Positions 11,827 to 34,903 of a DNA stretch of 64,000 bases are shown here, piece by piece. The DNA is from Syntrophorhabdaceae bacterium (lineage in GTDB: Bacteria; Desulfobacterota; Syntrophorhabdia; Syntrophorhabdales; Syntrophorhabdaceae), in NCBI GenBank assembly GCA_963665295.1, contig OY762209.1, positions 1,856,001 to 1,920,000 on the forward strand, in the 5' to 3' direction. The translations under genes and the position numbers were made by a program. The notes under the pieces were generated by a model. It was given only the letters and a program-made list of their open reading frames with translations, had not been told where the DNA came from and searched no databases. How positions within the stretch are numbered: the first letter of the stretch is position 1; every line of letters starts with the position of its first letter.

Positions 11827-11875
11827 TATTTTCCCTAATTGCAGACCACTCGGAAGACGACACCTCTAGAGAGCC

Positions 11876-11920: not shown

Positions 11921-11943
11921 TCCTAATCCTCCCCCATTTCCTG

Positions 11944-12420
11944 ATGGAGACCGGCTCGAGAGTGGGCGAAGCCTGGGCGCTCAAAGTGAAAGACCTTGAC
12001 GTGAAACAACTGAAGGCAATTATAAGGCGAACGTGGAGCCGTACAAAGCTGGTGGAAACGACGAAAGGAAGAAACAAGCCGCCCGTCTATCTTTCGGACA
12101 AGACTTACGAGATAGCGAAGCGAAACATGGAAGGGAAGTTCGGAGAGGATTTTGTTTTACCAATTCGTTCACTGGTCGCGGATACACACAGGAATGCTTG
12201 CGGAAGAGATGGCGTAGGCACACCGATGCAGCCGTCACGCCCAAAGAGGCTACGCGACATTCCTGCTGCACGCAGATAGCGGAAAGCGGACAGCGTTAAG
12301 GACACACCCTCCAGACACAACAACTGATGCGCCATGCCGATCTCAGGAGCACACGGAAGTATTTTCACGGTACCGAGAGGAGCATGAAGGAAATTATGAA
12401 CCAGCGGGGAAGGTGGGAAA
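11944..12420 (+). pseudogene. Tyrosine recombinase/integrase C-terminal fragment, frameshifted
   Basis: METGSRVGEAWALKVKD (box I Arg), then in other frames ATRHSCCTQIAESG and QLMRHADLRSTRKY (His and catalytic Tyr). N-terminus absent. Confidence 0.8.
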
Positions 12421-12438
12421 CTCCAGTCAATCTTCCTC

Positions 12439-12467
12439 TTGGACGCCCGTAATTTTTGTATTATAAT
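12439..12467 (+). promoter_or_regulatory. Sigma70-like promoter of the MNT-HEPN operon
   Basis: TTGGAC-N17-TATAAT ending 5 nt before ATG 12473. Confidence 0.55.
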
Positions 12468-13409: not shown

Positions 13410-13424
13410 CTTCCTGCACGTAAT
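13410..13424 (+). repeat. Bipartite site family, tail-only copy
   Basis: CTTCCTGCACGTAAT, identical to 13501-13515 and followed by a similar GG.TAAATTC. Confidence 0.65.
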
Positions 13425-13456
13425 GGTTAAATTCTGAGGCGAAAGCATTTCTGCTG

Positions 13457-13515
13457 TTCTTCCTGAAGTCTACACTCCATCCCGTTTCACCTACATAGCA
13501 CTTCCTGCACGTAAT
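13457..13515 (+). repeat. Bipartite site family, copy A
   Basis: TTCTTCCTGAAGTCTACAC...CTTCCTGCACGTAAT; 51 nt offset from the T of TGAAG to the end of the tail. Confidence 0.7.
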
Positions 13516-13700
13516 CGGTAAATTCCCCATGAAAACATTTCACCTTTCCTGTAACGGAGTTTTGTGAATTCTTCTGGACATCCCGCGCTACAAGTGATAA
13601 GGGATACCCTAGAGTCAATTTTGGCTAACGCAGCAGGCAAACGAAGGCGCGGGCGCTCAACGATCCCCTGTCTTGGCTGCCGCAAGCGCGCGGAGAGCTC

Positions 13701-14963
13701 ATGGGTTGCGATGTGTTGCTGAGCGAGATAACAGACTTCTATTCGAAGTCACGTGATTACAACGGGATCCCCATTTCCTCTCTCGTCAGACCCCACGGAG
13801 AAATGAAGGTGAGAAGCTGCTTGTCCCAACTCATCAGTGATGGGCTAGTGTCTGTTGTATTCGGCGATTACCACCCTAACCCACACATAAAAGCTCTTCC
13901 CCCAGAACCCGAAGCAGAGCAGCGCGAGAAACTTGATACACCCCGCTTCCAACGCGCATGCGCGTACCCAACTGCCAAGCACCTAACAACAGTAGTCGAT
14001 CCGGCCGCTTTCAGCGACAGACCATTCAACTTGTCTCTGGCGCTTGGGGAGCCACAGTTAACATACAAGAGTTTCGACTTATCGATACTAGAGATATATC
14101 GTAACGATCCGCGTTACCACTATAGCTACGACGACATTCACGGTTGGATTAGCGTCACGAGCGAGTTCTTCGAGACAGACAGGATGAAGGACTCAGACCA
14201 GGTGCTCCTAGAGTCTTTCGGTTTTTGTTTCGATAAGGAGAACAACGTCTACGTGGCTGCATTTCTCAGATACTTGTCAGGCCTTAGCCCTGAGCACCAA
14301 CTTATATGGGCTTCAAAGAAGGTCAGCAACGAAACGTACTTGCATCCAGATTACCATCGGACATCGATAATCGGCGATTGGCCTGAACGACTCTCCCTGT
14401 ATCAGGCCGTTCTGGCGGAGATGAAGGCGATAAATGATATCTGTGCAGCCATCGGACGTAAATCTTTCTTCAAAAACGACTTCGCCGAGGGCAGACGGCC
14501 ACGTGAGTTCGGGTATCTGCTCCGCCCGACGTTGAAGGAATACAACGAATTTATCCACCTTCTCGACAAAATGCTATCCGAGAATATTAACAGAGAGTTT
14601 TTCGGACATGATGTTTCTTTTGAGAGAGAAGAAGAAAGAGGTGACGGAAAGATTATTGTAAGGCAAAAGGGGACAATTCAGATACTGACTGATTGGCTAA
14701 GAAGTTGCTTTAAGACCAATGACTGGTCAGAAATTGAAGAAATGCTTCAGACGCTCCGAGATGTTAGGAAGTTGCGTCAAAAGCCAGCTCACTCGATAAA
14801 AGAGAACGAGTTCGACCAACAGTACATTCGTGAACAGCGGGAGGTCATGAAGCAAGTTTACCGTGCAGTCATGATTTTGCGCGTTGCGTTGGCGTTGCAT
14901 CCTTCGGCCTCCGAGATCAGGATTCCCAGGCAGCTAACGGATAGCCTTATATGGGCAGTGTAA
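13701..14963 (+). CDS. Conserved hypothetical protein with a C-terminal HEPN-like RxxxxH motif (candidate defence effector)
   Basis: 420 aa ORF. VRKLRQKPAH lies in a helical C-terminus. No Walker A motif seen. Confidence 0.65.
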   Translation: MGCDVLLSEITDFYSKSRDYNGIPISSLVRPHGEMKVRSCLSQLISDGLVSVVFGDYHPNPHIKALPPEPEAEQREKLDTPRFQRACAYPTAKHLTTVVDPAAFSDRPFNLSLALGEPQLTYKSFDLSILEIYRNDPRYHYSYDDIHGWISVTSEFFETDRMKDSDQVLLESFGFCFDKENNVYVAAFLRYLSGLSPEHQLIWASKKVSNETYLHPDYHRTSIIGDWPERLSLYQAVLAEMKAINDICAAIGRKSFFKNDFAEGRRPREFGYLLRPTLKEYNEFIHLLDKMLSENINREFFGHDVSFEREEERGDGKIIVRQKGTIQILTDWLRSCFKTNDWSEIEEMLQTLRDVRKLRQKPAHSIKENEFDQQYIREQREVMKQVYRAVMILRVALALHPSASEIRIPRQLTDSLIWAV

Positions 14964-15117
14964 GTGGTAGGGGCTAGCGCAAGGCGCTCCACGCGGACAC
15001 CGCCTGGCGGCTCTCTCAAGCTTGATGGGACAAAAGGGTCGGCACCCGACATGAGACAACCATGAAGCGGCTTCTCTCTGACCCTCGATGTAAAGGCCAG
15101 AACAGACGGGGGTGTGA

Positions 15118-15588
15118 ATGAAAAAGTTTGTGTGGGACACATCTGCAATCATAAACATTAAAGAGCCGAATTCAGAGGGCTATTCACCCGGTCACAGCCT
15201 AATTAAAGACCTTTCTGATGGATGGATCCGCGGGCCATATCAGAATATATTCCCATCTTTGGCAGTTTTCGAGGTGTCCGCTACGGTCTCTCGAATGCAT
15301 CGCGAAGGCAAAAGAATATTGAGAGAATTCTACCTACTGGATGAAAAGTCAATATTGTATGACGTTGATAGGGGTCTTATTCTCAAGAGTCATGATCTTC
15401 ATGCTAAACAGGGCTTTGATCAACTAAAAGGAGCAGATTTGGTTTTTGCATGTATTGCCTATATTGAAGATGCTTATCTCGTAACGCTAGACAAACAGCT
15501 TGGAAGAAGCATATCAAGACATGTTAAAATCATAGATCTAAACGATAGTCGTGATTTGCCGGAATATAGACAATTATTTGAGCCCTAA
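15118..15588 (+). CDS. PIN-domain (VapC-like) nuclease, no adjacent antitoxin
   Basis: FVWDTSAII, FEV, LKGADLVF, LVTLD acidic PIN residues. Confidence 0.8.
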   Translation: MKKFVWDTSAIINIKEPNSEGYSPGHSLIKDLSDGWIRGPYQNIFPSLAVFEVSATVSRMHREGKRILREFYLLDEKSILYDVDRGLILKSHDLHAKQGFDQLKGADLVFACIAYIEDAYLVTLDKQLGRSISRHVKIIDLNDSRDLPEYRQLFEP

Positions 15589-15606
15589 CCGAATACCAAC
15601 CATGGA

Positions 15607-18096
15607 TTAAGGTAGACAACACTTCTTGTATTTCTTCCCACTGCCGCAAGGACATGGATCATTTCTGCCTATTCCGCCGCGGTTCTGCATGGCTTTCTCT
15701 ATCCTTTTTCTTCTTAAACTCTCTGCTCGAATTTTCAGTCGTTCAAGCTTTGCATCAGGAATATCTTCAAGGCTAATAAAATCAAAATCGACAGCAATGA
15801 GATCTCGCGCTAAATTAAAGGTTAGTTCGACTAGTAGCCGTTCTTGATCTCCGGTAACCAGCATGGCCGTCTGTACGTGTTCTAATGCAAGTCTCTTATC
15901 TCGTTCTAATAACTGCTCTTGCCAGCAAAACACCGTAATCTTTACGTCGCCATAGGTTGAGAGTGCTCTTGCCCGACCTGATACTGATTGTTCTTTCAAC
16001 ACCTCATCTATTCCCGACCAAATAGTAGTTCGCCATGATCCCTCACAATCGAGAAGCATGCTTGATACCTTTCTTCGGTAGCTTTGAGTACTTGTTGACA
16101 AAAAATCTATGATCTCTTTTAGGCGGACAGGTAGCTCCTGCCTAAGAGAGCATGTTGCGTCTGGATCATGTAGTTTATGGGTAAAATAATGGTCGATATC
16201 TACTCGATATCCGTTCCACAACAATTCTCGGTCAAAACCAAACTGTTTTACGTATTCGGTGTAAATATTATGTTTGAGGTATAAACCGAGATGATCAAGT
16301 TCATCTTCCGTTTTAATCAAATTCGATTGAAATGCCCGTACCCTTTGTTCAACAAAATGCAAGAAAATAAGAGGGTTATCAAAGATGTCGGTGTAAACTC
16401 GTAAATCGTCTATTGAGATTGACCATTGAGGATATTGACCCACATTTACGCCAATCTTCTTTAGATGCTGCGCCTGTGAAGCAAGCTCAGTAAACGCGTC
16501 AAGCGTAACTGCACATACCGTAACGTGCTCAAACTCATTTCTCGCGATTGTTCCGATAAAATCATGGTTTTTGTCGAAGAGATCTACTTTGACATCGCTT
16601 TCGAGGTATTCCAAGAAGCGTCCTCCCTGTTCAGCTGGCTTGAAGACCAGATTTCGTAGCGACTCAATATATGCTGAAAAATCCGTCGCAGGGGGCGTAT
16701 ATGTAAATGCTCCGGCCTTTACTTCGACGATAAAGAGATGGTCTTCATAAATTAATATGGCATCTACCTCGCACCACTGTAAACTATTACCGGATCCCGT
16801 GTGCCAACGATAGTATACGGGGCGATAAGTCTGAGCCCCAGGAAGCAGCTTGACAAAAAGCTCTATAGGAATCCGCTCGGATACATCCTGTTGCTTGTTG
16901 TTCCATATTGCCCGATACTCTGGTTTCCTTTTTAATATGATTCGCTGCATAGTTCTATAGAAGTTATCAAAGAGGTTATAAAGTTCAAAACAATAATTTT
17001 GTCCATTGATCTTAATGAAAGGGCGTTTAAAGATGGGCCATATTCGGAGAGGCCATGCTTTGTATTCGCCTTCTGCAAAAAACTCGGTATCTTGTCCTGG
17101 CTCCCACGACAATTCGTTCAGTAGCGCCTCTGGCAGATCTGTGATCTTCGCGAGATTGAATAGATCCAACCCGCAGAGTCTTCCGGACACGTGTTCTCGC
17201 CAATCTTCCCCGTAATTTTCACGGATGATTCGTCGCATGGCGTCAGGAAGGTCCCCTTCTTGATCATTTCCCAACGTCCCTCTTTTTTCCTCCAGTTTGG
17301 CGATTACAACCTCTCGACACTTCACCAATTCTTCCAGTACATTCCCCAAGCCCATTGTCAGCGAATCTTGAATTCGTTGAAGTGCCGAAAGAAGTTTCTC
17401 AACATTGATACCAAACAATTCCTGTAGAATATCGTTGTGGGGTGAAAGGACATCACGGAGAAACGGAATATTGTGTGCGCTGTAGCGATGTCCGCGGATG
17501 TTGCACCAGTAAATTTGAGCTTTGTAAAAATACTCTTCAAAATCAGGGTCATAATCAGGGTCATTCTTACGAGCGACAGCCGTACGACAAATTTGGTAAT
17601 CCATGTTTAGTTTGGAAAACAAACCGCCTACTAACGCTCTAGTCTCTTCCCACTGTTCTTCGGTTACTGCCTCTTCAATGACTTCGGCTGGCTGTGCCGA
17701 GGCTATGATGCTTTGCAAATAATCCACCATTCTAAGAGAGAGTGCGCCATCTTGGTCAATATCGCTTTCACTCTTTATGTTGAGATGATGCCCCGCCATT
17801 TCCCAGTAGCCCCTTTTGAGCACTTCATCTGGTGGAAGTTTTCTGACTATCTCAACAATACGGAAAATTGCGTCGTTAATTTCTTGACAAACTTCTGGAA
17901 AATGCTCGATGAGTTTTTCCTGCGCCTCCTCGAACTGTTCGCCGGACATCCGGTTTCTGGCCACCAGCAGAGTGCCGAAACGAGCCATTTCGAATGCCCC
18001 GTGGGAAAAATAGTCGTCAGCGGATACTGGCTTCTTTTTTGCTACGAGTTCCGAAACTCTATGCTTAGCGCGTGCCTTCTTTCCCATGAGTAGCAT
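15607..18096 (-). CDS. Large protein with a NERD/PD-(D/E)xK nuclease domain and a C-terminal SEC-C motif
   Basis: CEVDAILIYEDHLFIVEVKAG (D...ExK); C-terminal GRNDPCPCGSGKKYKKCC. Confidence 0.8.
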   Translation of the reverse strand: MLLMGKKARAKHRVSELVAKKKPVSADDYFSHGAFEMARFGTLLVARNRMSGEQFEEAQEKLIEHFPEVCQEINDAIFRIVEIVRKLPPDEVLKRGYWEMAGHHLNIKSESDIDQDGALSLRMVDYLQSIIASAQPAEVIEEAVTEEQWEETRALVGGLFSKLNMDYQICRTAVARKNDPDYDPDFEEYFYKAQIYWCNIRGHRYSAHNIPFLRDVLSPHNDILQELFGINVEKLLSALQRIQDSLTMGLGNVLEELVKCREVVIAKLEEKRGTLGNDQEGDLPDAMRRIIRENYGEDWREHVSGRLCGLDLFNLAKITDLPEALLNELSWEPGQDTEFFAEGEYKAWPLRIWPIFKRPFIKINGQNYCFELYNLFDNFYRTMQRIILKRKPEYRAIWNNKQQDVSERIPIELFVKLLPGAQTYRPVYYRWHTGSGNSLQWCEVDAILIYEDHLFIVEVKAGAFTYTPPATDFSAYIESLRNLVFKPAEQGGRFLEYLESDVKVDLFDKNHDFIGTIARNEFEHVTVCAVTLDAFTELASQAQHLKKIGVNVGQYPQWSISIDDLRVYTDIFDNPLIFLHFVEQRVRAFQSNLIKTEDELDHLGLYLKHNIYTEYVKQFGFDRELLWNGYRVDIDHYFTHKLHDPDATCSLRQELPVRLKEIIDFLSTSTQSYRRKVSSMLLDCEGSWRTTIWSGIDEVLKEQSVSGRARALSTYGDVKITVFCWQEQLLERDKRLALEHVQTAMLVTGDQERLLVELTFNLARDLIAVDFDFISLEDIPDAKLERLKIRAESLRRKRIEKAMQNRGGIGRNDPCPCGSGKKYKKCCLP

Positions 18097-18304
18097 TCAC
18101 CGATCTTAGAGATATTGTATAATATTCTTTGACGACATTATAGCAAAGGAAAGAGAGCAACACCCATAGGGGCCCTTCATACAAAGTGAACTTTTGGTCC
18201 TAAAGCCAGTACATGTTACGTTCCTATCATTTTTGTCCTATGGCGCATGTCTCACACCTTTCCTTCGATGATGTGCAACCATTCGAAAAAGGTCCATCAT
18301 CGAC

Positions 18305-18362
18305 TTGTTGTGAAGTTCACGCACAACCCTCTCTTGACCCCGTGGCTCTTTCTGCACGTAAT
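18305..18362 (+). repeat. Bipartite site family, copy B
   Basis: TTGTTGTGAAGTTCAC...CCCTCTCTTGACCCC...CTTTCTGCACGTAAT; 51 nt offset. Confidence 0.7.
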
Positions 18363-18392
18363 CCGCAGGTTCTCATGAGAAATCATTTTTGT

Positions 18393-19270
18393 TGTCAACG
18401 GTCTTTTCAATTTGAGCCATTTTCGGTCGTCAAGACTGAGCCACCCGCCCTTACGCCCAACTCCTTTTCTTCCACCTCCTGTCCGATCTTTCCCCTAAGC
18501 CTGTAACTGTTTCCTTTCATGTTGATCACCACGCTGTGATGGAGGAGGCGATCAAGGAAGGCGGTTACAATGACCGGGTCCTGGAAGAGCTCCGTCCAGT
18601 CCGAGAAGGCCTTATTGGAGGTAATGATGGTGCTGGCCTTTTCGTACCGGTTGGCGATGAAGCGGAAGAAGAGATTGCATTCTTCCCTGTCGATGGGCGT
18701 ATAACCTACCTCGTCCACGATCACGAGCGCCGACTTGCGGTAGGCCCTCGCTCTTCCCTTGCCGCCGGACGCACGGTCCTTTTTCAACTTCCCGATGAGG
18801 TCCTCCATGGTAGTAAAGTAGATGCTCAATCCTGCCTGGCACGCCTTTACCGCGAGGGATACCGCCAAGTGGGTCTTCCCGATGCCGGGAGGGCCGAGAA
18901 AGATCACATTGTCCTTCTGCCGGACAAAGGTCAGGTCAAAGAGGGCCATGATCTTCTGTCGATCCAATGTGGGTTGGAAGGCGAAGTCGAACTCATCGAT
19001 GCTCTTGACAAAGGGAAGGCCCGATATCTTCAAAGATGTCTCCACTCTCCTTTGCTCCCTTGAGGCGACCTCCTCTTCAAGGAGTTCATCAAGAAATCTG
19101 AGATAACTCTTCCCCTCATCCTCCGATACCCGTATTGCCCTTTCCAGGATGGTGCCCATATGGGAGAGCTTCAGTCGCGTGAGACTCCCCTGAATTCGGT
19201 CAAAGACGAAGGTATCGTTCATATGGCCACCGCATCATAAAAAGACGGGGACCGTACTTCCAGGAGGCTA
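18393..19270 (-). mobile_element. IS21-family remnant: one end, intact istB, last codons of istA
   Basis: End TGTCAACGG with internal TGAGCCA repeats. istA tail SLLEVRSPSFYDAVAI* overlaps the istB start. The rest of istA is absent. Confidence 0.75.
18407..19222 (-). CDS. istB: IS21 helper ATPase IstB
   Basis: FDFAFQP, GPPGIGKTHLA, IVDEVGY, RYEKASTIITSN, LDRLLHH, GNSYR. Confidence 0.95.
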   Translation of the reverse strand: MNDTFVFDRIQGSLTRLKLSHMGTILERAIRVSEDEGKSYLRFLDELLEEEVASREQRRVETSLKISGLPFVKSIDEFDFAFQPTLDRQKIMALFDLTFVRQKDNVIFLGPPGIGKTHLAVSLAVKACQAGLSIYFTTMEDLIGKLKKDRASGGKGRARAYRKSALVIVDEVGYTPIDREECNLFFRFIANRYEKASTIITSNKAFSDWTELFQDPVIVTAFLDRLLHHSVVINMKGNSYRLRGKIGQEVEEKELGVRAGGSVLTTENGSN

Positions 19271-19303
19271 TAGGGACGTCCAAGGAGGCTATAGGGACGT
19301 CCA
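19262..19303 (+). repeat. Perfect 21 bp tandem duplication (REP-like GGGACGTCC core)
   Basis: AGGAGGCTATAGGGACGTCCA x2. Related hairpin GGGACGTCC-TTCAA-GGATGTCCC at 19498-19520. Confidence 0.8.
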
Positions 19304-19440
19304 TGAAAGGATTAAATTGTCTGCGGTTTGCAGAAAAACAAAGGTTTAGGCGTTGAAGAAATCCTTAATGATGCCACCCTTTAACTGTTTCTTCTCGTAA
19401 ATCATTGCCGAGTCAAAGCAGTCCGTGCTCGACTTATAGG

Positions 19441-19487
19441 TCAAGTTCACACTAAAGCCCTGTCTCGGCCCCTTAACGCTTTCTATG
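19441..19487 (+). repeat. Bipartite site family, truncated copy I
   Basis: TCAAGTTCAC...CCCTGTCTCGGCCCC...CTTTCTATG aligns with copy B throughout. The tail is cut off by a GGGAC element. Confidence 0.55.
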
Positions 19488-19779
19488 AGGGGCTACCGGG
19501 ACGTCCTTCAAGGATGTCCCCATTGATTGAACAAGTAAGCGGGAAACCGTGAATGTCAATATTTCACCGCCGCCCCGTCCCCATTAGATCCTGAAGTCAG
19601 GGGTCAAGAAGTCCGCCGTCGATCATTGCGATATCCTGAGAGAGAAGATAAGCCCCGCCCCAGTCCGGCTCTATGAGGAGATCAACAAAGAATAGAGCCG
19701 GACTGCGGTTTTGCTTGCCTTTTTTCCCCGATTCGGACCATAATAATCCAAAAATAAGACCGAAGAGCGAGGTATTTTT

Positions 19780-22146
19780 ATGAAAACGTCGGTATCGCAG
19801 GTGACTTGCCACGCTATTCTCCTGGCTGTCCTTACTCTGGCGCTGGTGTGCTTTATCCATCCCCCGGTTGCGGGAGCCGCCGATCGAGGCGTGGAGAAGA
19901 CGGTGGGGAGGAGCACCTATCCGGCGCTCCTTGCGAGGGCCGAAAGCGACGGCTCGGCGAGGGTCATCGTAAAAGTGGGCATCGATTTCAGGGCAGAGCC
20001 GGTTCTTGCCGGAGAGCAGATGGCCGCACAGAGGGCCGCGACCCTCATGGCCCAAAACCGGCTTATCTCGGAGCTTGAGACGAAGGGCGTCGCGCCTTCC
20101 GCCTTTTATCGTTACAAATACATACCTTTTATGGCCATGACCGTGAGCGCCGCCGGCCTGAAGGCTCTTGCCGCTTCGGCCAATGCCCTGCTCATTCAGG
20201 AGGACGCGGTTTCCCTGCCTGACGAAGACCCCACACCGGGTTGGAGCATCCCCCTTATCGGCGCAGAGGCGATGCAGAACGCCGGCATAACGGGCGCGGG
20301 CATGACCGTTGCAGTGGTCGATACGGGCGTTGACAAGACCCATCCCTATCTTACCGGTGCGGTTACCTCCGAGGCATGTTACTCCACCAATGACAGGCAG
20401 CACAAGCAGTCCTCTCTCTGTCCCGGGGGAGTTTCCTCCTCCACGGCCGCAGGCTCCGCAATGCCTTACGGGGGATCGTGCCCCACGTCCACCGTGCCCG
20501 GTCAGGGAAAGTGCGACCATGGCACCCACGTGGCGGGAATCGTTGCCGGACGGAGCGGTATCGCCGGAAGCCCGGGACCGGGTGTGGCCCCGGCGGCCAA
20601 CATTATCGCCATACAGGTTTTCACTTACTCTGAGCGGGCCCAGGACTGCGACTCAAACGGGCCTCCGTGCGTCACGGCAAACGACTCCGACATTATCAAG
20701 GCCCTGGAGAGGGTCTACGAACTTCAAGAGGGCGGCCTTACCATCGCTTCCGTCAACATGAGCCTCGGAGGCGGTCAGTATGGCGAGAACTGCGACAGTC
20801 AGGCAGCTTCGAAAACTATCGTCGATATGCTGAGGGCGGCGAATATCGCCACCGTGGCATCATCGGGCAACAACGGGTATTGCGGCGCCATAGGCAGTCC
20901 CGCGTGTATTTCGTCGGTGGTCAGCGTGGGCGCAACCGATTCGAACGATAATGTAGCCCCCTATTCAAACAGCGCGCCCTTCATGAGCCTTCTGGCCCCG
21001 GGCTCGGCAATCACGTCGTCCATACCGGAGGTGGAGGACACGTGGTATGCCTCCTGGAACGGCACGTCCATGGCCGCCCCGCACGTGGCGGGCATTTGGG
21101 CGTTGATGAGGCAGCAGACACCCGCGGCCACGGTGAGCGACATTTTGAGCGCCCTTACGTCCACGGGGGCCTCGGTGACCGATTCGTCATGCAGCCCGGT
21201 GACGAAAAAGAGGGTGAACGTGAGCGAAGCCTCCGCCCTGCTCCAAAACGGGGCAGCCCTCTCAGTTACCATCGGGGGAAAAGGCCAGGGCACGGTCTCA
21301 GCCGACGGCCTCACGTGCGCGGGCAGCGCGAGTTGCTCGGGAACCTACGTGACCGGGACCACCGTGACCCTCACCGCCCAACCCAATTTCAAGTACGCCT
21401 TCGACGCGTGGACGGGCTGTACCACCACGACAGACAATACGTGCACCATAGTCATGGATAGCGGCAAGACCGTGACCGCGTCCTTCGGGCTTCTTCCCGT
21501 AATGAACGTGACGCCCCAATCCTTGAACTTCGGCTCCGTGAAAAAAGGGATTCGTTCGGATAAACAAATCACCGTCAAGAATACAGGACCCACCGGAGCC
21601 GCCCACCTTACGGTCGGCACTGTCGATATATCAGTCCCCTCGGATTTTGCGGTGACCGGCACCACCTGCGCCACGCCCCTTGCAAAAGGGGAATCGTGCA
21701 CCATAACCATCGGCCTTACCTCCTCGTCCTACGGGGCAAAGAGCGGCCTGGCAAGGGTGGCCTCCAATGACCCCAAGCGATCCCCCATAGGCGTGAAACT
21801 CGCGGGGAACGCCGCACCTCCCGTCATCTCCGTGCCGGGCAACACAAACCTGGGTTCCATCACGGTGGGGCAGACAAGCGAGGCGAAACAGATATATGTG
21901 AGGAACACGGGACTTTCCCCCCTCACCTTCACCTTTATCGGGCTTGCCGACAAGAGCGGCCCCTTTGCCCTGGTCTTCGACGGGTGCACGGGCCAGAGCG
22001 TTGCCAAGGGTGACTATTGCCCCGTGGCAGTCACTTTCACCCCTACCGCTGCCGGCACCGCGACAGGCCACCTGATCATCCAGTCCAACGACCCCAACCC
22101 GTCAAGGGCCACGCTCGTGAGGCAGCTAAGCGGTCGGGGGAAGTAA
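19780..22146 (+). CDS. Secreted S8 subtilisin-like protease with a B-repeat and two choice-of-anchor D-type domains
   Basis: Triad VAVVDTG, HGTHVAG, GTSMAAPHVAG; signal peptide; VKNTG...SNDP Ig repeats. Confidence 0.92.
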   Translation: MKTSVSQVTCHAILLAVLTLALVCFIHPPVAGAADRGVEKTVGRSTYPALLARAESDGSARVIVKVGIDFRAEPVLAGEQMAAQRAATLMAQNRLISELETKGVAPSAFYRYKYIPFMAMTVSAAGLKALAASANALLIQEDAVSLPDEDPTPGWSIPLIGAEAMQNAGITGAGMTVAVVDTGVDKTHPYLTGAVTSEACYSTNDRQHKQSSLCPGGVSSSTAAGSAMPYGGSCPTSTVPGQGKCDHGTHVAGIVAGRSGIAGSPGPGVAPAANIIAIQVFTYSERAQDCDSNGPPCVTANDSDIIKALERVYELQEGGLTIASVNMSLGGGQYGENCDSQAASKTIVDMLRAANIATVASSGNNGYCGAIGSPACISSVVSVGATDSNDNVAPYSNSAPFMSLLAPGSAITSSIPEVEDTWYASWNGTSMAAPHVAGIWALMRQQTPAATVSDILSALTSTGASVTDSSCSPVTKKRVNVSEASALLQNGAALSVTIGGKGQGTVSADGLTCAGSASCSGTYVTGTTVTLTAQPNFKYAFDAWTGCTTTTDNTCTIVMDSGKTVTASFGLLPVMNVTPQSLNFGSVKKGIRSDKQITVKNTGPTGAAHLTVGTVDISVPSDFAVTGTTCATPLAKGESCTITIGLTSSSYGAKSGLARVASNDPKRSPIGVKLAGNAAPPVISVPGNTNLGSITVGQTSEAKQIYVRNTGLSPLTFTFIGLADKSGPFALVFDGCTGQSVAKGDYCPVAVTFTPTAAGTATGHLIIQSNDPNPSRATLVRQLSGRGK

Positions 22147-22177
22147 TAGGGGCTTCTATAAGGGTATTTAAGGAGGT

Positions 22178-22226
22178 CATCCGCAGGGACCCGGACCACT
22201 GTGGCCGGTCGGGGTCCCTGCGGATG
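22178..22226 (+). terminator. Strong stem-loop after the S8 gene
   Basis: CATCCGCAGGGACCC...GGGTCCCTGCGGATG, 15 bp perfect stem. Confidence 0.6.
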
Positions 22227-22456
22227 GCTCGCAAGCTATGACAGAGCAAGAGCCTTCACTTAGCCGGAAGGGTGGAATTGACACAAAGGGCCTATCTGTG
22301 GCGCCATGCTGCGCCGGTGTCCTCTGACGTGCGGCAAGTACGTCGCTTAGAAGCACCTGCCGTTGGCCGGCACCGCATCTGATACATACCTCTGACCCCG
22401 TGAATCTGCACTCCCTGGGGAGCCCGACCTCCTGACTCTTTCCCAGCCTACGACGT

Positions 22457-22645
22457 ATGACAATACGTTGCCTGGAAGTAGTGAATAGAGAATTGGCGAT
22501 GGAGTTCGGCCGGGGCTTCTCTGAAAAGAACCTCCGGCACATGATCCGTTTTGCAGAAGTCTTTCCCGATGAGGAGATTCTCTCCGCACTGCGGAGAGAA
22601 TTGAACCGGACCCACCTGAAGAAGATCATATGCCCTTGGTGGTGA
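22457..22645 (+). pseudogene. DUF1016/YhcG N-terminal fragment
   Basis: EFGRGFSEKNLRHMIRFAEVFPDEEILSALRREL..TH is a typical DUF1016 N-domain segment; truncated on both sides. Confidence 0.75.
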
Positions 22646-22671
22646 TACTGTCATTCACTTCTGCACGTAAT
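22617..22671 (+). repeat. Bipartite site family, copy C
   Basis: TGAAGAAG...CTTCTGCACGTAAT. Confidence 0.6.
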
Positions 22672-22735
22672 AAACAGTCAGCCGCCGTAATGTTATAGCT
22701 CAACAGCAATGAACTTGGATGCTTCCCCCGCCGCC

Positions 22736-25392: not shown

Positions 25393-28300
25393 GGTAACAC
25401 CTCGTCGGTTTTGATTTCTGTTGGATCGGGCTCGGCTCCTTTTCTGTGGAGAAGGCTGAATACGACCGGGACGAAGAAGAGGGTTGCAATAGTGGCAAGG
25501 ATCAGGCCGCCAATGACCGCCCGGCCAAGGGGTGCATTCTGCTCGCCCCCTTCGCCCAGTGCAAGGGCCATGGGGAACATGCCGATCATCATGGCAAGGG
25601 CCGTCATGAGCACCGGTCGCAGGCGGCCTACACCCGCCTCCCATGCGGCCCTCATGGGGTCGAGGCCGCGGCGGAGATTATTTCTTGCGAAAGTCACCAC
25701 CAGGACCGAGTTGGCCGTAGCCACTCCCAGGCTCATAATTGCCCCCATCATGGCGGGAACGCTGAGCGTGGTGAAGGTAAGGTAGAGCCCCCACACTACG
25801 CCCGCAAAGGCACCGAGAAGGGCGGTAATGATGATGAATGGATCAAGCCAGGACTGGAAGTTGATGACCAAGAGGAGGTAGACGAAGGCGATTGCTAGAA
25901 GGAGCCCTATGGAGAGTCCGGTGAAGCTCGAATGCATGGTGTCTGCCTGCCCCCGGAACATGATGAAGCTCCCCTTGGGAAGCTCCTTCTTTGCCTGTTC
26001 CACCAGGGGCATGATATCCCGGAGCACGCCCCCCAGGTCACGCCCGCTCACTCCGCCGAATACGTCGATCACGGGCATGACATTGTACTGCGAGTAAATG
26101 GGTGAGCCGCTCGCGCGCTTCAGAGAGGCGAGGTTGGCGAGGACCTGCGCGTCGTTTTTGCCCTGCCGGTTCGCGCTTACCGGGATGCCGTTCAAGGCGG
26201 CGAGCGAGTCGATGGGGTGCTCCGGCACCCTCACGTTCACCAGGTACTGTATGCCGTTTTTGGGGTTGAGCCAGTAGTTCGGCTGCACCTGGCTGTTGCC
26301 GCTCAAGCTCAGGAGCACCGAGCCGGTAACATCCCGCTCGGAGAGCCCGATCTGTGATGCCTTGGTACGGTCGACGTCGAAATGGAGCTCGGGCTGATCC
26401 GTTGGTTGCTGGATGCGCACATCCACGGCCCCGGGAACCCGGCGGACCTTTTCAACGAGTCGTGCCGCAACGGCGTGGCTTTTCACGCGGTCCTTGCCGA
26501 CGATCTGGATGTCGAAGGGCGCGGGCAAACCGAAATTGATGGTCTGGTTCACGATATCGGCGGGCAGAAAATAAAAGGTTGTCCCCGGAAAGTCACGGTT
26601 AAGCCGGGCCCTCAGGCGCCTCACGTAGCCTTCCGTGGACCGGTGACCGGATTTGAGGGATACGAGTATATCCCCGTCGGCCGTCCCCGTGAGGCCGTTG
26701 TCGATGTAGGTGAGGGGGATCCCTCCGAAGGGGATGCCGAGATTATCGAGGATGCCGGCGATCTCTTTGGCGGGGATTTCTTCCCGTATGACACCCTCGA
26801 TCCTGTCAGCAAGCCGGGTTGTTTCTTCGATTCGCGTCCCTGTTGGGGCCCGGACATGGAGCCTGAACTGGCCAGCGTCTACCGAGGGGAAGAAATCCTG
26901 GCCGAGTTGAGGGATGAGAAGCCAGGAGCCGACGCAAAACGCGGTAAAAAGGATCGCGAAGGCCGTTCGATGGGCAAGGACATTGCCCAGCATCCGGCGA
27001 TAGTCTTCCCGGAAACGGGTGAATCCGCGCTCGAAACTTCCCTGCAGGGACACAAACGGGCGCAGCAATGGAGAAACCGATCCCGGGTCCGTTCCATGAC
27101 CCCGGTATTCGATATGGCGGTAGAACCACATGACAAGTGTCGGAATGAGGGTCCGGGAGAGCACGTAACTTGCGAGCATCGCGAATACGACTGCTTCGGC
27201 AAGAGGCACGAAAAGATACCGGGCAACGCCGGTTAAAAAGAACATCGGCACGAAGACGATGCAGATGCAGAGGGTGGAGACAAATGCAGGCAGGGCTATC
27301 TCCTGTGCCCCGTCCAAGATCGCCTGGACGTTCGGTTTGCCGAGCGCCATCTGGCGATGGACATTTTCAATTTCCACCGTCGCGTCATCCACCAGAATGC
27401 CAACGGCCAGGGCTAGTCCTCCCAGGGTCATGAGGTTGATGGTCTCGCCGAGGGCGGAGAGAAGGCCCAAGGAGCACAGAACGGAAAGAGGAATTGAGAG
27501 AGCGATGATAAAAGTGCCCCGCCATGTACCAAGAAAGAGGAGGATCATTATGGCCGTGAGCGTGGCGGCGATAATACCCTCTTTCATGACGCCGTTTATC
27601 GCCGCCCTCACGAAAAGGGACTGGTCGGCGAATTCCTTAACCCCGAGTTCCGAGGGAAGACCGCTTAGAATCCGGGGCATGGTCTTCTTCACGCTGTCCA
27701 CCACTGCGAGCGTAGAGGCGGCACCCGTTTTCATGATGGTAAGGAGAACTCCGCGGACCCCGTCGAGGCGTACCACATTTTGCTGGGGTTGGTATCCGTC
27801 ATGGACGTGAGCCACGTCGCCGACCCGGATTACCGCGCCGTTCACCGTCTTCACGGGAAGGTCGTTGAGCGCCGAAATCACCTCCGGGTTGCTGTTCATG
27901 AAGACGTTGTATTCCGTGGCGGCAATTTTTGCGGTGCCGCTGGGGAGAACGAAGTTCTGGGCGTTGACTGCGTTCACGACATCCTGGGGGGCTAGGTTCT
28001 TCGCCTGGAGGGCCGGAAGGTCGAGGTCCACGGCGACGACCCTTGCCTTGCCCCCGTACGGATAGGGCACCGAAGCGCCGCGCACGGTCGAAAGGCCCAC
28101 CTTGATCTGGTTCATCGCCATGTCCTGCAATTCCTGCTCGGAGAACCTTGTGCTCGCCAGGCTGTATTGCAGGATAGGCACTGTCGAGGCATTGTAGCGG
28201 ATCACGAAGGGCGGCGTGACCCCCGGCGGAAGGAACCTTTGGGCCGCCTGGCCGCTGGCGGCAAGCTGCCCCACCGCATCGGAAACCGAGGCACCCGGCT

Positions 28301-28589
28301 GGAGAAACACCTTGATGACACCAGCGCCGTTATAGGCCGTTGCTTCGATGTGCTCAATATCGTTCACCAGAGCTGCAATCATTCGCTCATGGTTCGAGAT
28401 GATCCGCTGATCCACCTCTTTCGCGTTGAGGCCGTTGTAGACCCAGACCACGCTCACGACCGGGATATTAATCTCAGGAAATATATCCGTCGGAGTGCGA
28501 AGCAGCACGAACGGCGTCAGTAATAAAAGCACCAACGAAGCCACCACGAACGTGTATGGTCGACGTAGTGCGAGTTTAACAATCCACAT
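25389..28589 (-). CDS. RND efflux permease (AcrB/AcrD/AcrF family)
   Basis: 1066 aa; DIFPEINIPVV, GILVDDATVEIEN, RLRPVLMT, PLGRAVIGG. Confidence 0.95.
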   Translation of the reverse strand: MWIVKLALRRPYTFVVASLVLLLLTPFVLLRTPTDIFPEINIPVVSVVWVYNGLNAKEVDQRIISNHERMIAALVNDIEHIEATAYNGAGVIKVFLQPGASVSDAVGQLAASGQAAQRFLPPGVTPPFVIRYNASTVPILQYSLASTRFSEQELQDMAMNQIKVGLSTVRGASVPYPYGGKARVVAVDLDLPALQAKNLAPQDVVNAVNAQNFVLPSGTAKIAATEYNVFMNSNPEVISALNDLPVKTVNGAVIRVGDVAHVHDGYQPQQNVVRLDGVRGVLLTIMKTGAASTLAVVDSVKKTMPRILSGLPSELGVKEFADQSLFVRAAINGVMKEGIIAATLTAIMILLFLGTWRGTFIIALSIPLSVLCSLGLLSALGETINLMTLGGLALAVGILVDDATVEIENVHRQMALGKPNVQAILDGAQEIALPAFVSTLCICIVFVPMFFLTGVARYLFVPLAEAVVFAMLASYVLSRTLIPTLVMWFYRHIEYRGHGTDPGSVSPLLRPFVSLQGSFERGFTRFREDYRRMLGNVLAHRTAFAILFTAFCVGSWLLIPQLGQDFFPSVDAGQFRLHVRAPTGTRIEETTRLADRIEGVIREEIPAKEIAGILDNLGIPFGGIPLTYIDNGLTGTADGDILVSLKSGHRSTEGYVRRLRARLNRDFPGTTFYFLPADIVNQTINFGLPAPFDIQIVGKDRVKSHAVAARLVEKVRRVPGAVDVRIQQPTDQPELHFDVDRTKASQIGLSERDVTGSVLLSLSGNSQVQPNYWLNPKNGIQYLVNVRVPEHPIDSLAALNGIPVSANRQGKNDAQVLANLASLKRASGSPIYSQYNVMPVIDVFGGVSGRDLGGVLRDIMPLVEQAKKELPKGSFIMFRGQADTMHSSFTGLSIGLLLAIAFVYLLLVINFQSWLDPFIIITALLGAFAGVVWGLYLTFTTLSVPAMMGAIMSLGVATANSVLVVTFARNNLRRGLDPMRAAWEAGVGRLRPVLMTALAMMIGMFPMALALGEGGEQNAPLGRAVIGGLILATIATLFFVPVVFSLLHRKGAEPDPTEIKTDEVLP

Positions 28590-28735
28590 GGTCTATCTCC
28601 TCCTGCTGTACTGCTCTTGGGGGGCGGCGCCGAAGTCTTGTTGAAACGACCCCTCTCGCCCACAAACGTAAATGGATCCAGGGAACCTGCACCTGAACCT
28701 GTGATTTAAGAGTTTAAACTACGGGTATTGCGGTA

Positions 28736-29032
28736 TTAGCAACGAAGGGGTGGGGCTTCTGTCTGGGTGTTGGGGGTAGGGGCTTCAAAATCAAAAGTAG
28801 ACGCTGTCAGAACAACGGCCGGATCGGGACTCATCGGGCCCGAGGGCGGAAGGCCGACCATCTCGGCGAGGTCGGAAGAAGACGTCACCGAGTCGCGAAG
28901 ACACGGTTTCATCTTATGCGAGAACGGGCAGCCCTGAGAGAGCTTGTGCGCGCAGGTAAGCGGTACCATGCCCGCAATGAGCATGATAATAGCACATGCC
29001 ACAATAGTCGAGGTCAAACTATGACGCCGCAT
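28736..29032 (-). CDS. Small hypothetical exported Cys/His-containing protein
   Basis: GGAGG RBS, signal-like N-terminus, ends PPLRC; upstream of the RND operon. Confidence 0.5.
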   Translation of the reverse strand: MRRHSLTSTIVACAIIMLIAGMVPLTCAHKLSQGCPFSHKMKPCLRDSVTSSSDLAEMVGLPPSGPMSPDPAVVLTASTFDFEAPTPNTQTEAPPLRC

Positions 29033-29104
29033 TATCTATCCTCCGCAATCCTTCACTTCACTAGTATAGCATAAACGAATAATGTGAAGGAACAGCGAAG
29101 AGAA

Positions 29105-29158
29105 TGTGAATAATTATGAAGAAGAACCTGCCGCGCCTGCTTCCTACGCGCGCATAAT
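29105..29158 (+). repeat. Bipartite site family, degenerate copy D
   Basis: TGTGAAT...GCGCATAAT with 51 nt offset, followed by CGGTAATTC as in copy A. Confidence 0.4.
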
Positions 29159-29315
29159 CGGTAATTCGCACAACAGACTGATAGAAATATCCTTTCTTTC
29201 TATCAGTCTGTAACAACCTCTTCACCCTAAGGTCTACCACCGTTTCAGCCATTTGCATTGTTAAAAGAGCCCGTGAAACACGCTGCGAGGTGGGCCCAAA
29301 CGTTGAGATGGGTTT

Positions 29316-29375
29316 TTTGTGAATTGCGATTTCATTATCAATTTCTAATCGCTATTAACACTTTCTATGCGTAAT
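29316..29375 (+). repeat. Bipartite site family, copy E
   Basis: TTTGTGAAT...CTTTCTATGCGTAAT; 55 nt offset. Confidence 0.5.
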
Positions 29376-29524
29376 TCGCAGCGGAGGGCTTACCCTGGGT
29401 TATTTACTTGCAGGTGACGGCATCAGATCCATCTAATTTCGGCCCATCGGGTGATCAATAAAGTGGCGGTGATAGCCCTTTATGGTGATTGTCACACCAC
29501 TTACCTAATGATGTCAGTGGTTTA

Positions 29525-29548
29525 AGAGCGGAGAGGGTGGGATTCGAA
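29525..29548 (-). repeat. att site: duplicated 3' end of tRNA-Ser
   Basis: AGAGCGGAGAGGGTGGGATTCGAA, identical to 34809-34832. Confidence 0.9.
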
Positions 29549-29670
29549 AATACGGCCATTCAGTAATGACACGGCCTTCTAAGCTTTACCTAAATATCAC
29601 CTAAACATCAAATCGCGTGCTGTTGACTCCACCTACAAGTCAATAACCGAGGCCGAGGGTTTGGCCGAGG

Positions 29671-29732
29671 ACTACGCATAGAAAGCATTGCATTTTGGCG
29701 TCAAGAGAGGACCAAGGCGAACTTCACGACAA
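29671..29732 (-). repeat. Bipartite site family, copy F
   Basis: Minus strand TTGTCGTGAAGTTC...CCTCTCTTGACGCC...CTTTCTATGCGTAGT; aligns with copy B. Confidence 0.65.
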
Positions 29733-29739
29733 ACAACCC

Positions 29740-30549
29740 TCACCCCCCAATCCGCTTCAAGAGGAGAATAATACCAGGTGAAGTGAAAACCAGTTTGTGT
29801 GAGTTCAGTTTCAAGGTAGGACGACGAGAATGACAAACATCGTCATCGGAAAACTGATCCCCATTAGAAACATACAGGCAGCCCAACCTCTGACAAACTG
29901 TCTTGAGGGAGCCTTTTCCGTTCGCGCAAAATCGCGCCACATTGAATAGTCCTCCGGATGCAACCAAAAGTACCCGCCCGGGATCATTAGTAGCAGGCCC
30001 ATGAGGATTACACCGATCATGATCCATGAAACAGACGCTATCGCCTTCGCTGCTTGAGGCCCTTCGAAGAGGGCGGAGATAGTAACCGCTAAGGACCGCC
30101 GACGGTCTACAATAGACGTGTCTTATGTTCTCCCAGTTGACGCGGCGTTTCACGAGACCTAGACGCTGCACGATCTCGGCGCCGTCATTCTCAATGAATC
30201 CTCTCTCGTTCACTTCATAGCTTCCATGATTGGTGTCTATGAAGTAGAACGGTCTACCACTACGTATCGAAATTCTTTCCTGCAATCCCGTTACATTCTT
30301 TAGCTCTACGCGCGTTTTGAAGAGATGCTTGATTTCTAGATGTTCCGACGTGAGCGAAATGCGCTCGGGAGTCAACAGACTAGCACATATCCCGATCAGC
30401 CAAAGTAGCAAGGCGAGACCGACATACAGAAAAGCAACCTGAATTTTATTCAAGGCACCTCCGATGTGGCTTTGCTGGTGATCTCCATGTAAGCTATCAT
30501 TGTTCTTTTGGCTGGCTATCTGATCTCTTGGACGTAGGGGCGACTGCAT
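29740..30549 (-). CDS. Hypothetical membrane protein (PH-like segment); 3' part probably non-native read-through
   Basis: A TM segment followed by a beta-rich region. The C-terminal third overlaps the 29811-30020 ORF and looks random. Confidence 0.35.
   Translation of the reverse strand: MQSPLRPRDQIASQKNNDSLHGDHQQSHIGGALNKIQVAFLYVGLALLLWLIGICASLLTPERISLTSEHLEIKHLFKTRVELKNVTGLQERISIRSGRPFYFIDTNHGSYEVNERGFIENDGAEIVQRLGLVKRRVNWENIRHVYCRPSAVLSGYYLRPLRRASSSEGDSVCFMDHDRCNPHGPATNDPGRVLLVASGGLFNVARFCANGKGSLKTVCQRLGCLYVSNGDQFSDDDVCHSRRPTLKLNSHKLVFTSPGIILLLKRIGG
29811..30020 (-). CDS. Small two-TM membrane protein
   Basis: 69 aa ORF with two hydrophobic segments. Confidence 0.4.
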   Translation of the reverse strand: MIGVILMGLLLMIPGGYFWLHPEDYSMWRDFARTEKAPSRQFVRGWAACMFLMGISFPMTMFVILVVLP

Positions 30550-31174
30550 CCCCCGATGAGTCTGGCTTAGCGCAGTTCTTCATATAGGGCGTCAGTCCGG
30601 CCCTGGGCTTTGCGTCCGGGTATTTCTTAGCCAGTTCCTCGGCACGAATGCTGAAGGATTTCCCCTCCTCCGCACGACCTATCTCTTGAAGGGCTCTAGC
30701 ATACAAAGTGAAGTATGCCACGAACTGGCCGGGATCGGTCCCAATGAATTCTTCTTTATCTACGATCGGGATGGCCTGGCCGAAATAAGATACGGCTTCG
30801 GCGTACTCTTCCCGATCGTACTTGAGCAAGGCAAGTTCGAAAAGCGCCATGTGGGTCGGACCGGATGTTTCTTTGTCATATTTCAAAGCCTCGGTCAGCA
30901 TAAGTTCCGCGTTCTTGTGATCGCAAAGAATGCCAAGCATCCTTCCGTACGAGTATGCGGCGGCCGCGTGACGTTGGGGTTCCAAGTTTCCCATTCTTAC
31001 GTTTACCAGCGCCCGGTAATAGTTCATTTTGGCGAGTTCGTATTGACCTTCTTGTTCAGCCACGAACCCGGCCTGATAATATCTTTGGTACGTCACTCTG
31101 TTTATGGGATTCGCGCAGCTATTAAGAACAAGAAAAAAGACCCCGATCAAACAAAGTTTGTATGCTGTCGTCAT
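30497..31174 (-). CDS. TPR-repeat lipoprotein
   Basis: Lipobox LNSC, TPR-like helices (YELAKMNYYRAL, YAEAVSYFGQA), GAGG RBS. Confidence 0.7.
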   Translation of the reverse strand: MTTAYKLCLIGVFFLVLNSCANPINRVTYQRYYQAGFVAEQEGQYELAKMNYYRALVNVRMGNLEPQRHAAAAYSYGRMLGILCDHKNAELMLTEALKYDKETSGPTHMALFELALLKYDREEYAEAVSYFGQAIPIVDKEEFIGTDPGQFVAYFTLYARALQEIGRAEEGKSFSIRAEELAKKYPDAKPRAGLTPYMKNCAKPDSSGDAVAPTSKRSDSQPKEQ

Positions 31175-31308
31175 GTAGGTTTCCTCTTTGTGGGAGGCAG
31201 AGTAACACACCCATATCATTACCACTTACAACGATTTATGTCCACAAAAGATTAGAAAGAACAGCCTTTAGGAATTAAGGCGAAACTCGTTTGTCGTGAA
31301 AGGTGCCC

Positions 31309-31367
31309 ATTACGTGCAGAAAGCATTCAACGGGTGATGTAAGGTGAGGTGTTGACTTCAGGAAGAA
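31309..31367 (-). repeat. Bipartite site family, copy G
   Basis: Minus strand TTCTTCCTGAAGTCAACAC...CTTTCTGCACGTAAT; 51 nt offset; head nearly identical to copy A. Confidence 0.7.
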
Positions 31368-31378
31368 GCAGGTATCAC

Positions 31379-34811: not shown

Positions 34812-34903
<92 letters not shown>

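Follow-up and report, generated by a model that had tools for sequence, protein, structure and literature searches.

The locus and its repeated box

An 18-kb accessory region lies beside a serine transfer RNA (tRNA) gene in the window analysed here, a 64,000-nucleotide stretch of contig OY762209.1 from a Syntrophorhabdaceae bacterium, to which all coordinates refer. To the left of an insertion at this tRNA, the region holds a MntA/HepT pair, an ATPase-like open reading frame (ORF), a PIN protein and an 829-aa protein with a SEC-C motif, and the array region also includes an IS21-type istB gene, an S8 protease and a three-gene RND efflux operon. A site of one repeat family is present in most of the sizeable intergenic gaps. 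These sites are clustered, share an architecture of boxes and have mosaic arms, and one of them is truncated. Their common element is a 15-nt tail box, CTTYCTRYRCGTAAT, referred to here as T, which starts at 13410, 13501, 18348, 22657 and 29361 on the plus strand, and at 29671 and 31309 on the minus strand.

These positions are the seven matches to T at up to two mismatches in the 64-kb window. In 100 dinucleotide shuffles the mean number of matches was 0.82 and the maximum 4, none of the shuffles attaining 7; the enrichment over shuffled controls, on which an earlier reading of this DNA (the original prediction) depended, is therefore real, and a chance origin of the repeat is excluded. All seven boxes are intergenic and together span 13.4–31.3 kb, in a region (13.0–32.0 kb) of which ORFs cover approximately 86% by arithmetic from the ORF sets. 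A nhmmer profile trained on the six full units and scanned over the whole window, at expect values (E) of up to 10, gave nine matches: the six training copies, the copy at 13410 (13402–13452, E 1.7e-5), and two weak ones at 19443–19486 (E 0.87) and 19374–19400 (E 8.3). This profile found nothing before 13.4 kb or past 31.4 kb, in agreement with the original prediction that copies are absent beyond 35 kb. The T-free part of the window includes approximately 35 kb of ordinary genes and a low-G+C islet at 43–47 kb.

Five T copies hold a common 13-nt string, exact or with one change, and the flanks of T show chance-level similarity for many pairs of copies. That T is far better conserved than its flanks points to a constraint on the box, or to its repeated re-creation, rather than to a set of decaying duplicates. 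Outside the window, a scan of a genome collection from which the source genome was absent (head box, 29–37 nt and T) gave 14 loci with one match each, at chance level; they belong to unrelated taxa, including three Luteibacter, and none carries the flanks of the window units. Plasmid blastn searches with 13380–13600 and 29290–29760 yielded no match and one 33-nt chance match, respectively, and the matches of 11-mers of T in full-text literature were unrelated primer strings. A different short string, the 8-mer TAGGGGCT, occurs at 14968, 22147, 28777 and 34556, four times out of four on the plus strand and within the accessory region; two occurrences lie at or beside gene stops, and about two would be expected by chance over both strands.

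Anatomy of the units

The units extend over at most about 130 bp, which is the limit of the pairwise local alignments, and follow a common layout, with a TGAAG-type head approximately 37 nt upstream of T and a third box approximately 45 nt downstream. The aligned units thereby bear out the weak repeat that had been noticed after the tail. In four copies, an A/T-rich stretch (GAAA.CATTT) separates T from the third box. The head is, in the best copies, a direct near-repeat of the start of T, with CTTCCTG opening both at 13459 and 13501, and the earlier description of head and tail as inverted repeats has to be abandoned. Taken alone, the head box is non-specific (39 matches vs. 26 expected). Measured from the first base of TGAAG to the last base of the tail, the offset had been given as 51 nt in some copies and longer in others, and it is indeed 51 nt in three (13464/13515, 18311/18362 and 31360/31309) and 54–55 nt in another three (those at 22617, 29320 and 29726).

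Two types of T can be recognised by reading. In the ATG-variant copies, an extended T (TTAAC(G/A)C-TTTCTAT-GCGTAA) forms a 6–7-nt inverted repeat around a 7-nt spacer, and the right edge of this spacer coincides with the position at which the T box at 19479 is truncated. In the other copies, conservation is limited to the spacer and the right arm, and no convincing left half-site was seen. The distance between consecutive T boxes also recurs, being 91 bp at 13410/13501 and 92 bp from a weak T-like box at 19387 to the cut T at 19479; the whole period of ~91 bp aligns between 13410–13506 and the 19387 region (z 3.3, with one of 300 shuffles scoring higher).

Nine copies were originally proposed, of which seven are solid. 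The first of these (c13410; 13410..13457, plus strand) is a tail-only site, with T at 13410–13424, which matches the motif exactly, followed by a right arm of the type named A below and preceded by no related left arm. Its homology with the copies at 13501 and 18348 begins 4 nt before T, and its arm z scores are ~0 on the left and 1.6–2.9 on the right. The second (c13501; 13451..13581, plus) holds a head at 13461–13472, T at 13501–13515, 91 bp past the previous one, and a third box at ~13544–13560; it exhibits 130 bp of inverted homology with the last copy (c31309; 31238..31371, minus), which has A-type arms, a head at 31352–31363, T at 31309–31323 and a third box at ~31265–31282. The copy c18348 (18298..18401, plus) comprises a head at 18308–18319, T at 18348–18362 and a third box at 18386–18401. 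The copy c22657 (22607..22705, plus), with a head-like TGAAGA at 22617–22622 and T at 22657–22671, has only T in common with the others, its arms being unrelated to theirs (arm z −1.4 to 2.5).

The remaining two solid copies carry the ATG variant of T and mirror each other across the tRNA attachment (att) fragment, their T boxes being 295 bp apart. One of them (c29361; 29308..29426, plus) faces this fragment and holds a head at 29317–29328, T at 29361–29375 and a B-type right arm; the other (c29671; 29620..29738, minus) holds a head at 29718–29729, a T at 29671–29685 that ends in TAGT, a C-type left arm and a B-type right arm. The former forms a 66-nt inverted repeat of 71% identity with 29620–29685 (right-arm z 5.4–5.8). 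A weak sigma-70-like site on the minus strand (29488–29517; 9 of 12 positions plus an upstream TG) is located inside the 295-bp segment and points to a 98-aa ORF and the RND operon; an inversion of the segment is the one case in which this site would matter.

The two other proposed copies fared differently. The one at 19441 (19387..19487, plus) is real, although degenerate and truncated. It includes a weak T-like box at 19387–19401, a head at ~19438–19449 and a half T at 19479–19487, which retains only the first 8–9 bases of the box and is fused to an IS21-type end; its head and spacer align to 18298–18353 of c18348 with a z of 8.1, and the left-arm comparison gives a z of 5.7. The one at 29105 (29105..29167, plus) is marginal: its T-like box, at 29140–29158, has an insertion of 3–4 nt and is followed by the start of an A-type right arm, the profile misses it at E ≤ 10, and its sole link to the family is a 25–28-nt local alignment of 13501–13525 to 29140–29167 with a chance-level score. 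A possible diverged T with a right arm at 19298–19320 is unsupported, its z of 2.4 coming from an overlap artefact. Between the marginal copy and c29361, an inverted repeat (15 bp, perfect, with a loop of 9 nt) is found at 29173–29211, the right arm of which holds the first eight bases of the ATG-variant T.

Mosaic arms and the cut copy

The 55 nt to the left and the 56 nt to the right of T were scored separately with shuffle-based z values, and the resulting groupings, which rest on eight short and diverged sequences, confirm the spacer subfamilies of the original prediction. Among the left arms, type C groups 18348, 19441 and 29671 (z 2.5–5.9) and type A groups 13501 and 31309 (z 4.3–4.7). 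Among the right arms, type A groups 13410, 13501, 18348 and 31309 (z 1.6–4.0) and type B groups 29361 and 29671 (z 5.4–5.8). The two sides are combined in different ways: left and right arms are C/A in 18348, C/B in 29671 and A/A in both 13501 and 31309, with a unique left arm joined to B in 29361 and an unrelated one joined to A in 13410. The copies at 18348 and 29671 have therefore the left arm in common and not the right one, and pairwise alignments place the switch in similarity 11 to 4 nt upstream of T, i.e., at its 5' edge.

Mosaic arms that switch at the edge of T suggest that these sites behave like recombination joints. The proposal of gene capture or shuffling at non-attC sites, or of stacked element ends, is thereby supported in part, as this behaviour would fit the one and equally the other. 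The differing G+C content of the segments, ranging from 0.457 to 0.597, the tail-only copy at 13410 and the copy cut within T and fused to foreign DNA (19479–19487) likewise fit both. Three segments start with an A-type and end with a C-type arm (13516–18347, 18363–19478 and, on the other strand, 31308–29686). In both runs of sites, an A-type right arm follows the first T and a B-type right arm follows the last. The A-type left arm is also present on two of the three A-type starts, and the C-type left arm on one of the two ends. As a whole, the pattern offers moderate evidence for the attL, internal attP-like and attR sites that would be expected from serial integration of modules at one kind of resident site.

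The cut copy borders a remnant of the IS21 family of insertion sequences (IS; 18407..19527, minus strand). This remnant comprises istB (18407–19222), 21-nt boxes, of which two are in tandem (19262–19303) and a third stands apart (19487–19507), and a terminus-like end (19510–19527). The istB gene looks intact (IstB profiles with E 3.6e-82 and 1.6e-80), and no istA was found in Pfam and NCBIfam scans of the ORFs. In the plasmid collection, ISPepr5 has the closest IstB, with 54.5% identity. At each of its ends, ISPepr5 has a short terminal repeat and, within 55 bp, one or two internal boxes of 12 nt, and the string at 19510–19527 resembles its right terminus. The 16-nt box of the remnant, GGCTAYNGGGACGTCC, is unlike T and the head, and has three exact copies, at 19266, 19287 and 19491.

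The 183 bp between the second and third 21-nt boxes (19304–19486) are occupied by the degenerate unit, which ends exactly inside T. On the opposite side of istB, the third box of c18348 ends 5 nt before the stop of the gene, in the place of the 75 bp of end sequence found in ISPepr5. Judging from these borders, the IS21 remnant is clipped or interrupted by unit DNA on both sides, with one of the junctions within T. Such a junction would be expected from an exchange between T and a secondary site, ordinary deletion being the alternative.

Folding, coding and signal tests

As single-stranded DNA (T strand only), the six full units gave folding z scores from −1.97 to +1.07, with one below −1.5, and no structure common to them was found; an attC-like fold, as expected of integron sites, finds no support. 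No Rfam family matched the units, either at gathering thresholds or with E ≤ 5 as the limit. Conserved peptides are encoded in none of the three forward frames, and the frames closing at the TAA or TAG inside T are short (7–56 codons) or startless, leaving no credible gene. As for sigma-70 promoters and terminators, 2 of 20 promoter-like and 1 of 15 terminator-like sites touch a unit, and no consistent pattern results. Regarding gene placement, three units follow the end of a co-oriented gene, one lies between divergent starts and one between convergent ends, and two face the tRNA fragment.

Several known sites were also compared with T by eye, using consensus sequences, and were set aside. 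The GG of the −24 element of sigma-54 promoters is missing in all copies. A DnaA box is matched at 7 of 9 positions at most, and not at all by the ATG variant. The 38-bp ends of Tn3-type transposons are similar only in their inner ACGTAA-like part, with no GGGG terminus. Xer/dif sites have two 11-nt arms around a 6-nt centre, the XerD arm being very conserved, and no second arm follows T in any of the eight copies.

The surrounding island

The tRNA-Ser(CGA) gene (34812..34903, minus strand) is the target of an integration. A 31-nt direct repeat of its 3' end, 90% identical and with 24 nt exact, is found at 29525..29555 as the distal att of a 5.3-kb insertion that spans 29525–34839. The 21-mer core of this repeat occurs exactly twice (0 expected), and a third copy was not found further to the left. 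The plus and minus sets of units flank the repeat on opposite sides, as had been predicted. The cargo of the insertion includes a HAD hydrolase, an IS630 transposase, TPR and unknown genes, and two unit copies with two genes between them. No integrase gene is found in it, and it looks like a decayed tRNA-integrated element. The units were also considered as arm sites of the integrase of this insertion; however, the tRNA-proximal end (34530–34805) is unlike the arm to the left of the distal att, with a score of 23 vs. a shuffle mean of 29.

The only integrase detected is a tyrosine integrase pseudogene (11908..12452, plus strand; PF00589, E 5.4e-5), in agreement with the earlier remark that nothing but a pseudogene lies nearby. 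It is the frameshifted catalytic half of the protein, aligning to residues 247–320 of a 415-aa integrase, with approximately the first 240 codons missing, and it is located ~1 kb to the left of the array, reading toward it. Pfam and NCBIfam scans of the ORFs in 9–36 kb returned this single fragment and no other recombinase. A 420-aa ORF (13701–14963) that was tried as a candidate recombinase looks like a member of an uncharacterised AAA ATPase family. Close to the pseudogene, a repeat of 31–45 nt occurs in three copies, two of them direct (11176–11220 and 11876–11920, 89%) and one inverted (11112–11142); these surround an unknown 198-aa ORF (11230–11826, minus) and abut the truncation point of the integrase. 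The region 11112–11920 may be the insertion that broke the integrase.

The segments between sites have G+C contents of 0.457, 0.517, 0.597, 0.584 and 0.492. Those of the protease and the pump (19.5–29.4 kb) are indistinguishable from the core in G+C and in dinucleotide signature. The S8 protease (19780–22146) and a thaumatin-domain protein of the flanking core (7004–9622) hold the same C-terminal Ig-like domains (HYDIN/ASH/DUF1573) and share a 44-nt stretch with 73% identity, which suggests that the protease segment derives from the same lineage. Beyond the array, two adjacent genes (37999–43030) encode large secreted-type proteins, each combining a chagasin-like inhibitor, a papain-family protease and repeat domains. 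They are followed by a second low-G+C islet (43100–47000, 0.445), which bears an IS1-like transposase fragment, a Gp49/HigB-like and HTH pair and a KilA-N protein, and has no T.

Proposed recombination at T and stepwise accretion

The preferred reading, with a rough probability of 0.4, places T at the core of an att-like site for recombination of double-stranded DNA, and explains the array by stepwise accretion of modules. This core would consist of the crossover region together with a single arm, strongly specified, for binding the recombinase. Accessory binding sites for the same protein or for a helper would be provided by the head and the third box, ~40–45 bp away on either side, and a bend could form in the A/T-rich stretch that separates T from the third box. 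Circular modules holding one site each would recombine serially with a resident site, producing a row of co-oriented hybrid sites with the left arm of one module and the right arm of the next. The minus-strand pair lies in the separate 5.3-kb insertion at tRNA-Ser, which would itself have gained one module. The recombinase would have been the integrase now truncated at 11.9 kb, or would be an enzyme encoded elsewhere. We infer in this way that a recombinase binds and cuts at T, as well as the position of the cut and the order of the events.

Several features are in accordance with this accretion model. Partial sites are present, one of them consisting of T and a right arm only (13410) and another of a left arm and the first 8–9 bases of T (19479). 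The segments differ in G+C content, the remnant of an integrase lies 1 kb to the left, and a tRNA integration hotspot adjoins the array. No hairpin, RNA family, coding frame or promoter pattern was found in the units. Accretion, together with the decay of integrated elements into cis-mobilizable remnants, is an established route to such arrays (PMC5704250). Tandem islands at ssrA are the subject of a paper on Dehalococcoides (PMC3146451).

On the other hand, several observations weigh against accretion at T. First of all, the window holds no intact recombinase, and the pseudogene has no tie to T. Second, T is not recognisable as the end of a target gene, the frames that end in it being short or startless, and no inverted left half-site is present beside it in five of the eight copies, so that the core is asymmetric at best. 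Third, the head and the third box co-vary within a unit (TTGTTGT twice at 18348, TTCCTG twice at 13501), which is awkward if arms reassort freely, and homologous exchange within any repeat family can also yield mosaic arms. The T-to-T spacing of 91/92 bp, found twice, looks like a tandem period and not like two independent deletions of cargo. The segments at 19.5–29.4 kb, with the S8 protease and the RND pump, may be native and not captured, because their G+C and dinucleotide signature are core-like. Simple accretion does not predict that 29361 and 29671 mirror each other around the tRNA att fragment; this geometry would instead fit a segment able to invert, with inverted T sites at its borders and matching inner arms. 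A junction formed by tandem integration predicts a matching tRNA-proximal arm in the 5.3-kb insertion, and none was found. Finally, the searches of the genome collection and of plasmids yielded no related unit for comparison.

If T works as a recombination core, short double-stranded sites would allow whole operons, such as the defence-type ATPase/PIN block, the protease and the RND efflux pump, to be stacked and swapped with no integron involved. The 15-nt box and its spacing rule would then be a handle for the borders of modules and for the responsible enzyme in this lineage. If the units are instead decayed element ends or an architectural repeat, they represent an ordinary feature of an insertion hotspot, mainly useful for island annotation.

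Alternative explanations

The alternative that survives best, possible if doubtful, considers the units to be multi-box ends of transposons, ISs or miniature inverted-repeat transposable elements (MITEs), with the head as the terminus, T and the third box as internal transposase sites, on the model of IS21, Tn7, Mu or Tn402-type ends, and nested or one-ended insertions in a hotspot as the origin of the array. Three direct boxes in ~100 bp are typical of such ends, and the terminal repeat and short internal boxes of ISPepr5, the nearest IS21 relative, offer an example. Plus copies followed by minus copies are the arrangement that nested insertions give, and two inverted pairs have their heads outward (13451–13581/31238–31371, 17.9 kb; 29308–29426/29620–29738, 0.4 kb). 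The heads start with TGT- or TG-like strings, the third box at 18393 is similar to the ISPepr5 terminus, with one change, and one unit is located where the right end of the istB remnant would be expected. However, the units that flank istB are direct and not inverted, the remnant has a terminus and boxes of its own, and neither istA nor a cognate transposase is present, the other transposases being IS630 and IS1-like only. By reading, no target duplication was seen at either inverted pair. It is the innermost box, T, that is conserved and not the terminus, and mosaic arms are unexpected for the ends of a single element family. As for MITEs, the inverted pairs are there, but the copies share at most 130 bp at low identity, far below the near-identity that is usual for these elements.

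A non-mobile origin is unlikely, in which the units would be a lineage-specific intergenic repeat, either a mosaic of the bacterial interspersed mosaic element (BIME) and repetitive extragenic palindromic (REP) kind or an operator array, to which an architectural or regulatory protein would bind so as to insulate the transcription units of this accessory region or co-regulate them. Between 13 and 32 kb, sites are present in most of the larger gaps between transcription units and at none of the tight junctions within operons, and two of them lie within core-like DNA. Two box types alternate with few types of linker, in short tandem runs with a 91–92-bp period, which recalls mosaic intergenic repeats. 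However, the other 46 kb of the 64-kb window, including ~35 kb of core genes and the islet at 43–47 kb, hold no copy, T is non-palindromic, and the units do not fold. Their orientation and distance to genes are inconsistent, with the start of a co-oriented gene within 300 nt downstream for two or three of the eight sites, and no promoter or terminator signal accompanies them consistently (2/20 and 1/15). Truncated and tail-only copies are also hard to explain for operators.

Similarly unlikely is that the T sites serve a hairpin-independent, integron-like capture system, with a 15-bp double-stranded core and accessory boxes as its recombination site. In such a system, circular modules of operon size would be inserted by a recombinase working in trans, or in the past by the integrase that has now decayed, and the DNA between opposed sites could also be inverted, for example the 295 bp from 29375 to 29671 with the tRNA att fragment. 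The island would then be a modular, reshufflable gene array, of a kind that is not known from integrons, shufflons or pdif plasmids.

That the array is a chromosomal integron, its units being odd attC sites, is highly improbable, since, despite a unit size (55–130 bp) within the attC range, toxin–antitoxin genes (MntA/HepT, PIN) that are typical cassette cargo and several units placed after the end of a co-oriented gene (29740 to 29729; 31379 to 31363), it is already contradicted by the failure of single-strand folding in six of six full units and by sites in both orientations, the segments are multi-gene and reach 6.7 kb, no inverted R''/R' cores were seen by reading, and the sole integrase, a truncated tyrosine recombinase of ordinary appearance, lies at 1 kb and is co-oriented with the array.

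Comparison with known systems

The termini that RIT (recombinase-in-trio) elements carry, to which the sites had initially been likened, are described as 34-bp inverted repeats (PMC10214605). The analogy is not supported: the scans of ORFs in 9–36 kb show no trio of adjacent tyrosine recombinase genes, and the units measure ~100–130 bp. Like the sites studied here, ISPepr5, from plasmid pPRO1 of Pelobacter propionicus, groups several short boxes in ~100 bp with TG-initial strings, and one unit abuts istB; however, its boxes are 25 bp apart, compared to ~45 bp in the units.

In Acinetobacter plasmids, short pdif sites, recognised by XerC/XerD, occur in both orientations and split the accessory DNA into modules, including toxin–antitoxin ones. 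They differ from the units in their second Xer arm, which, by reading against the consensus, follows T in no copy.

The sfx sites of the R64 shufflon, which are used by Rci, are asymmetric, with a conserved spacer and one conserved arm, the other arm being free. As in the shufflon, several sites subdivide the region, and inversion of the DNA enclosed by an inverted pair would be possible, the candidates being 29361/29671 (295 bp between T boxes) and 13501/31309 (17.8 kb). Unlike the units, shufflon sites alternate in orientation and lie within a single gene, in its coding segments, and the window has no gene resembling that for Rci.

Integron sites also have a short conserved core in otherwise variable sequences at the borders of cassettes. 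In attI1, accessory direct-repeat boxes bind the integrase beside the simple site, an arrangement that the head and third boxes resemble. In contrast to attI and attC, the units have no hairpin and no GTTRRRY-type cores, occur in mixed orientation around operon-sized modules, and are accompanied by no recognisable IntI, the integrase fragment being incomplete. Paired inverse attC cores (RYYYAAC ... GTTRRRY) were not found in the units, GTTAAAT following T only in the copy at 13410.

A close parallel is provided by accretion arrays of the ICESt1 type (PMC5704250). What is repeated as the core in known arrays is the target gene's 3' end, in many cases that of a tRNA, whereas T matches no gene end, the tRNA-Ser core of this locus is a different sequence that is repeated once, and the window holds no functional integrase. 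In both cases, however, co-oriented sites with a short core divide an island into modules, with hybrid internal sites, lost or decayed integrases and an adjoining tRNA hotspot. The direct core repeats between modules that characterise such arrays are found here as five plus-strand and two minus-strand T boxes, each set co-oriented, and hybrid internal sites are indicated, with moderate support, by the incongruent groupings of the left and right arms.

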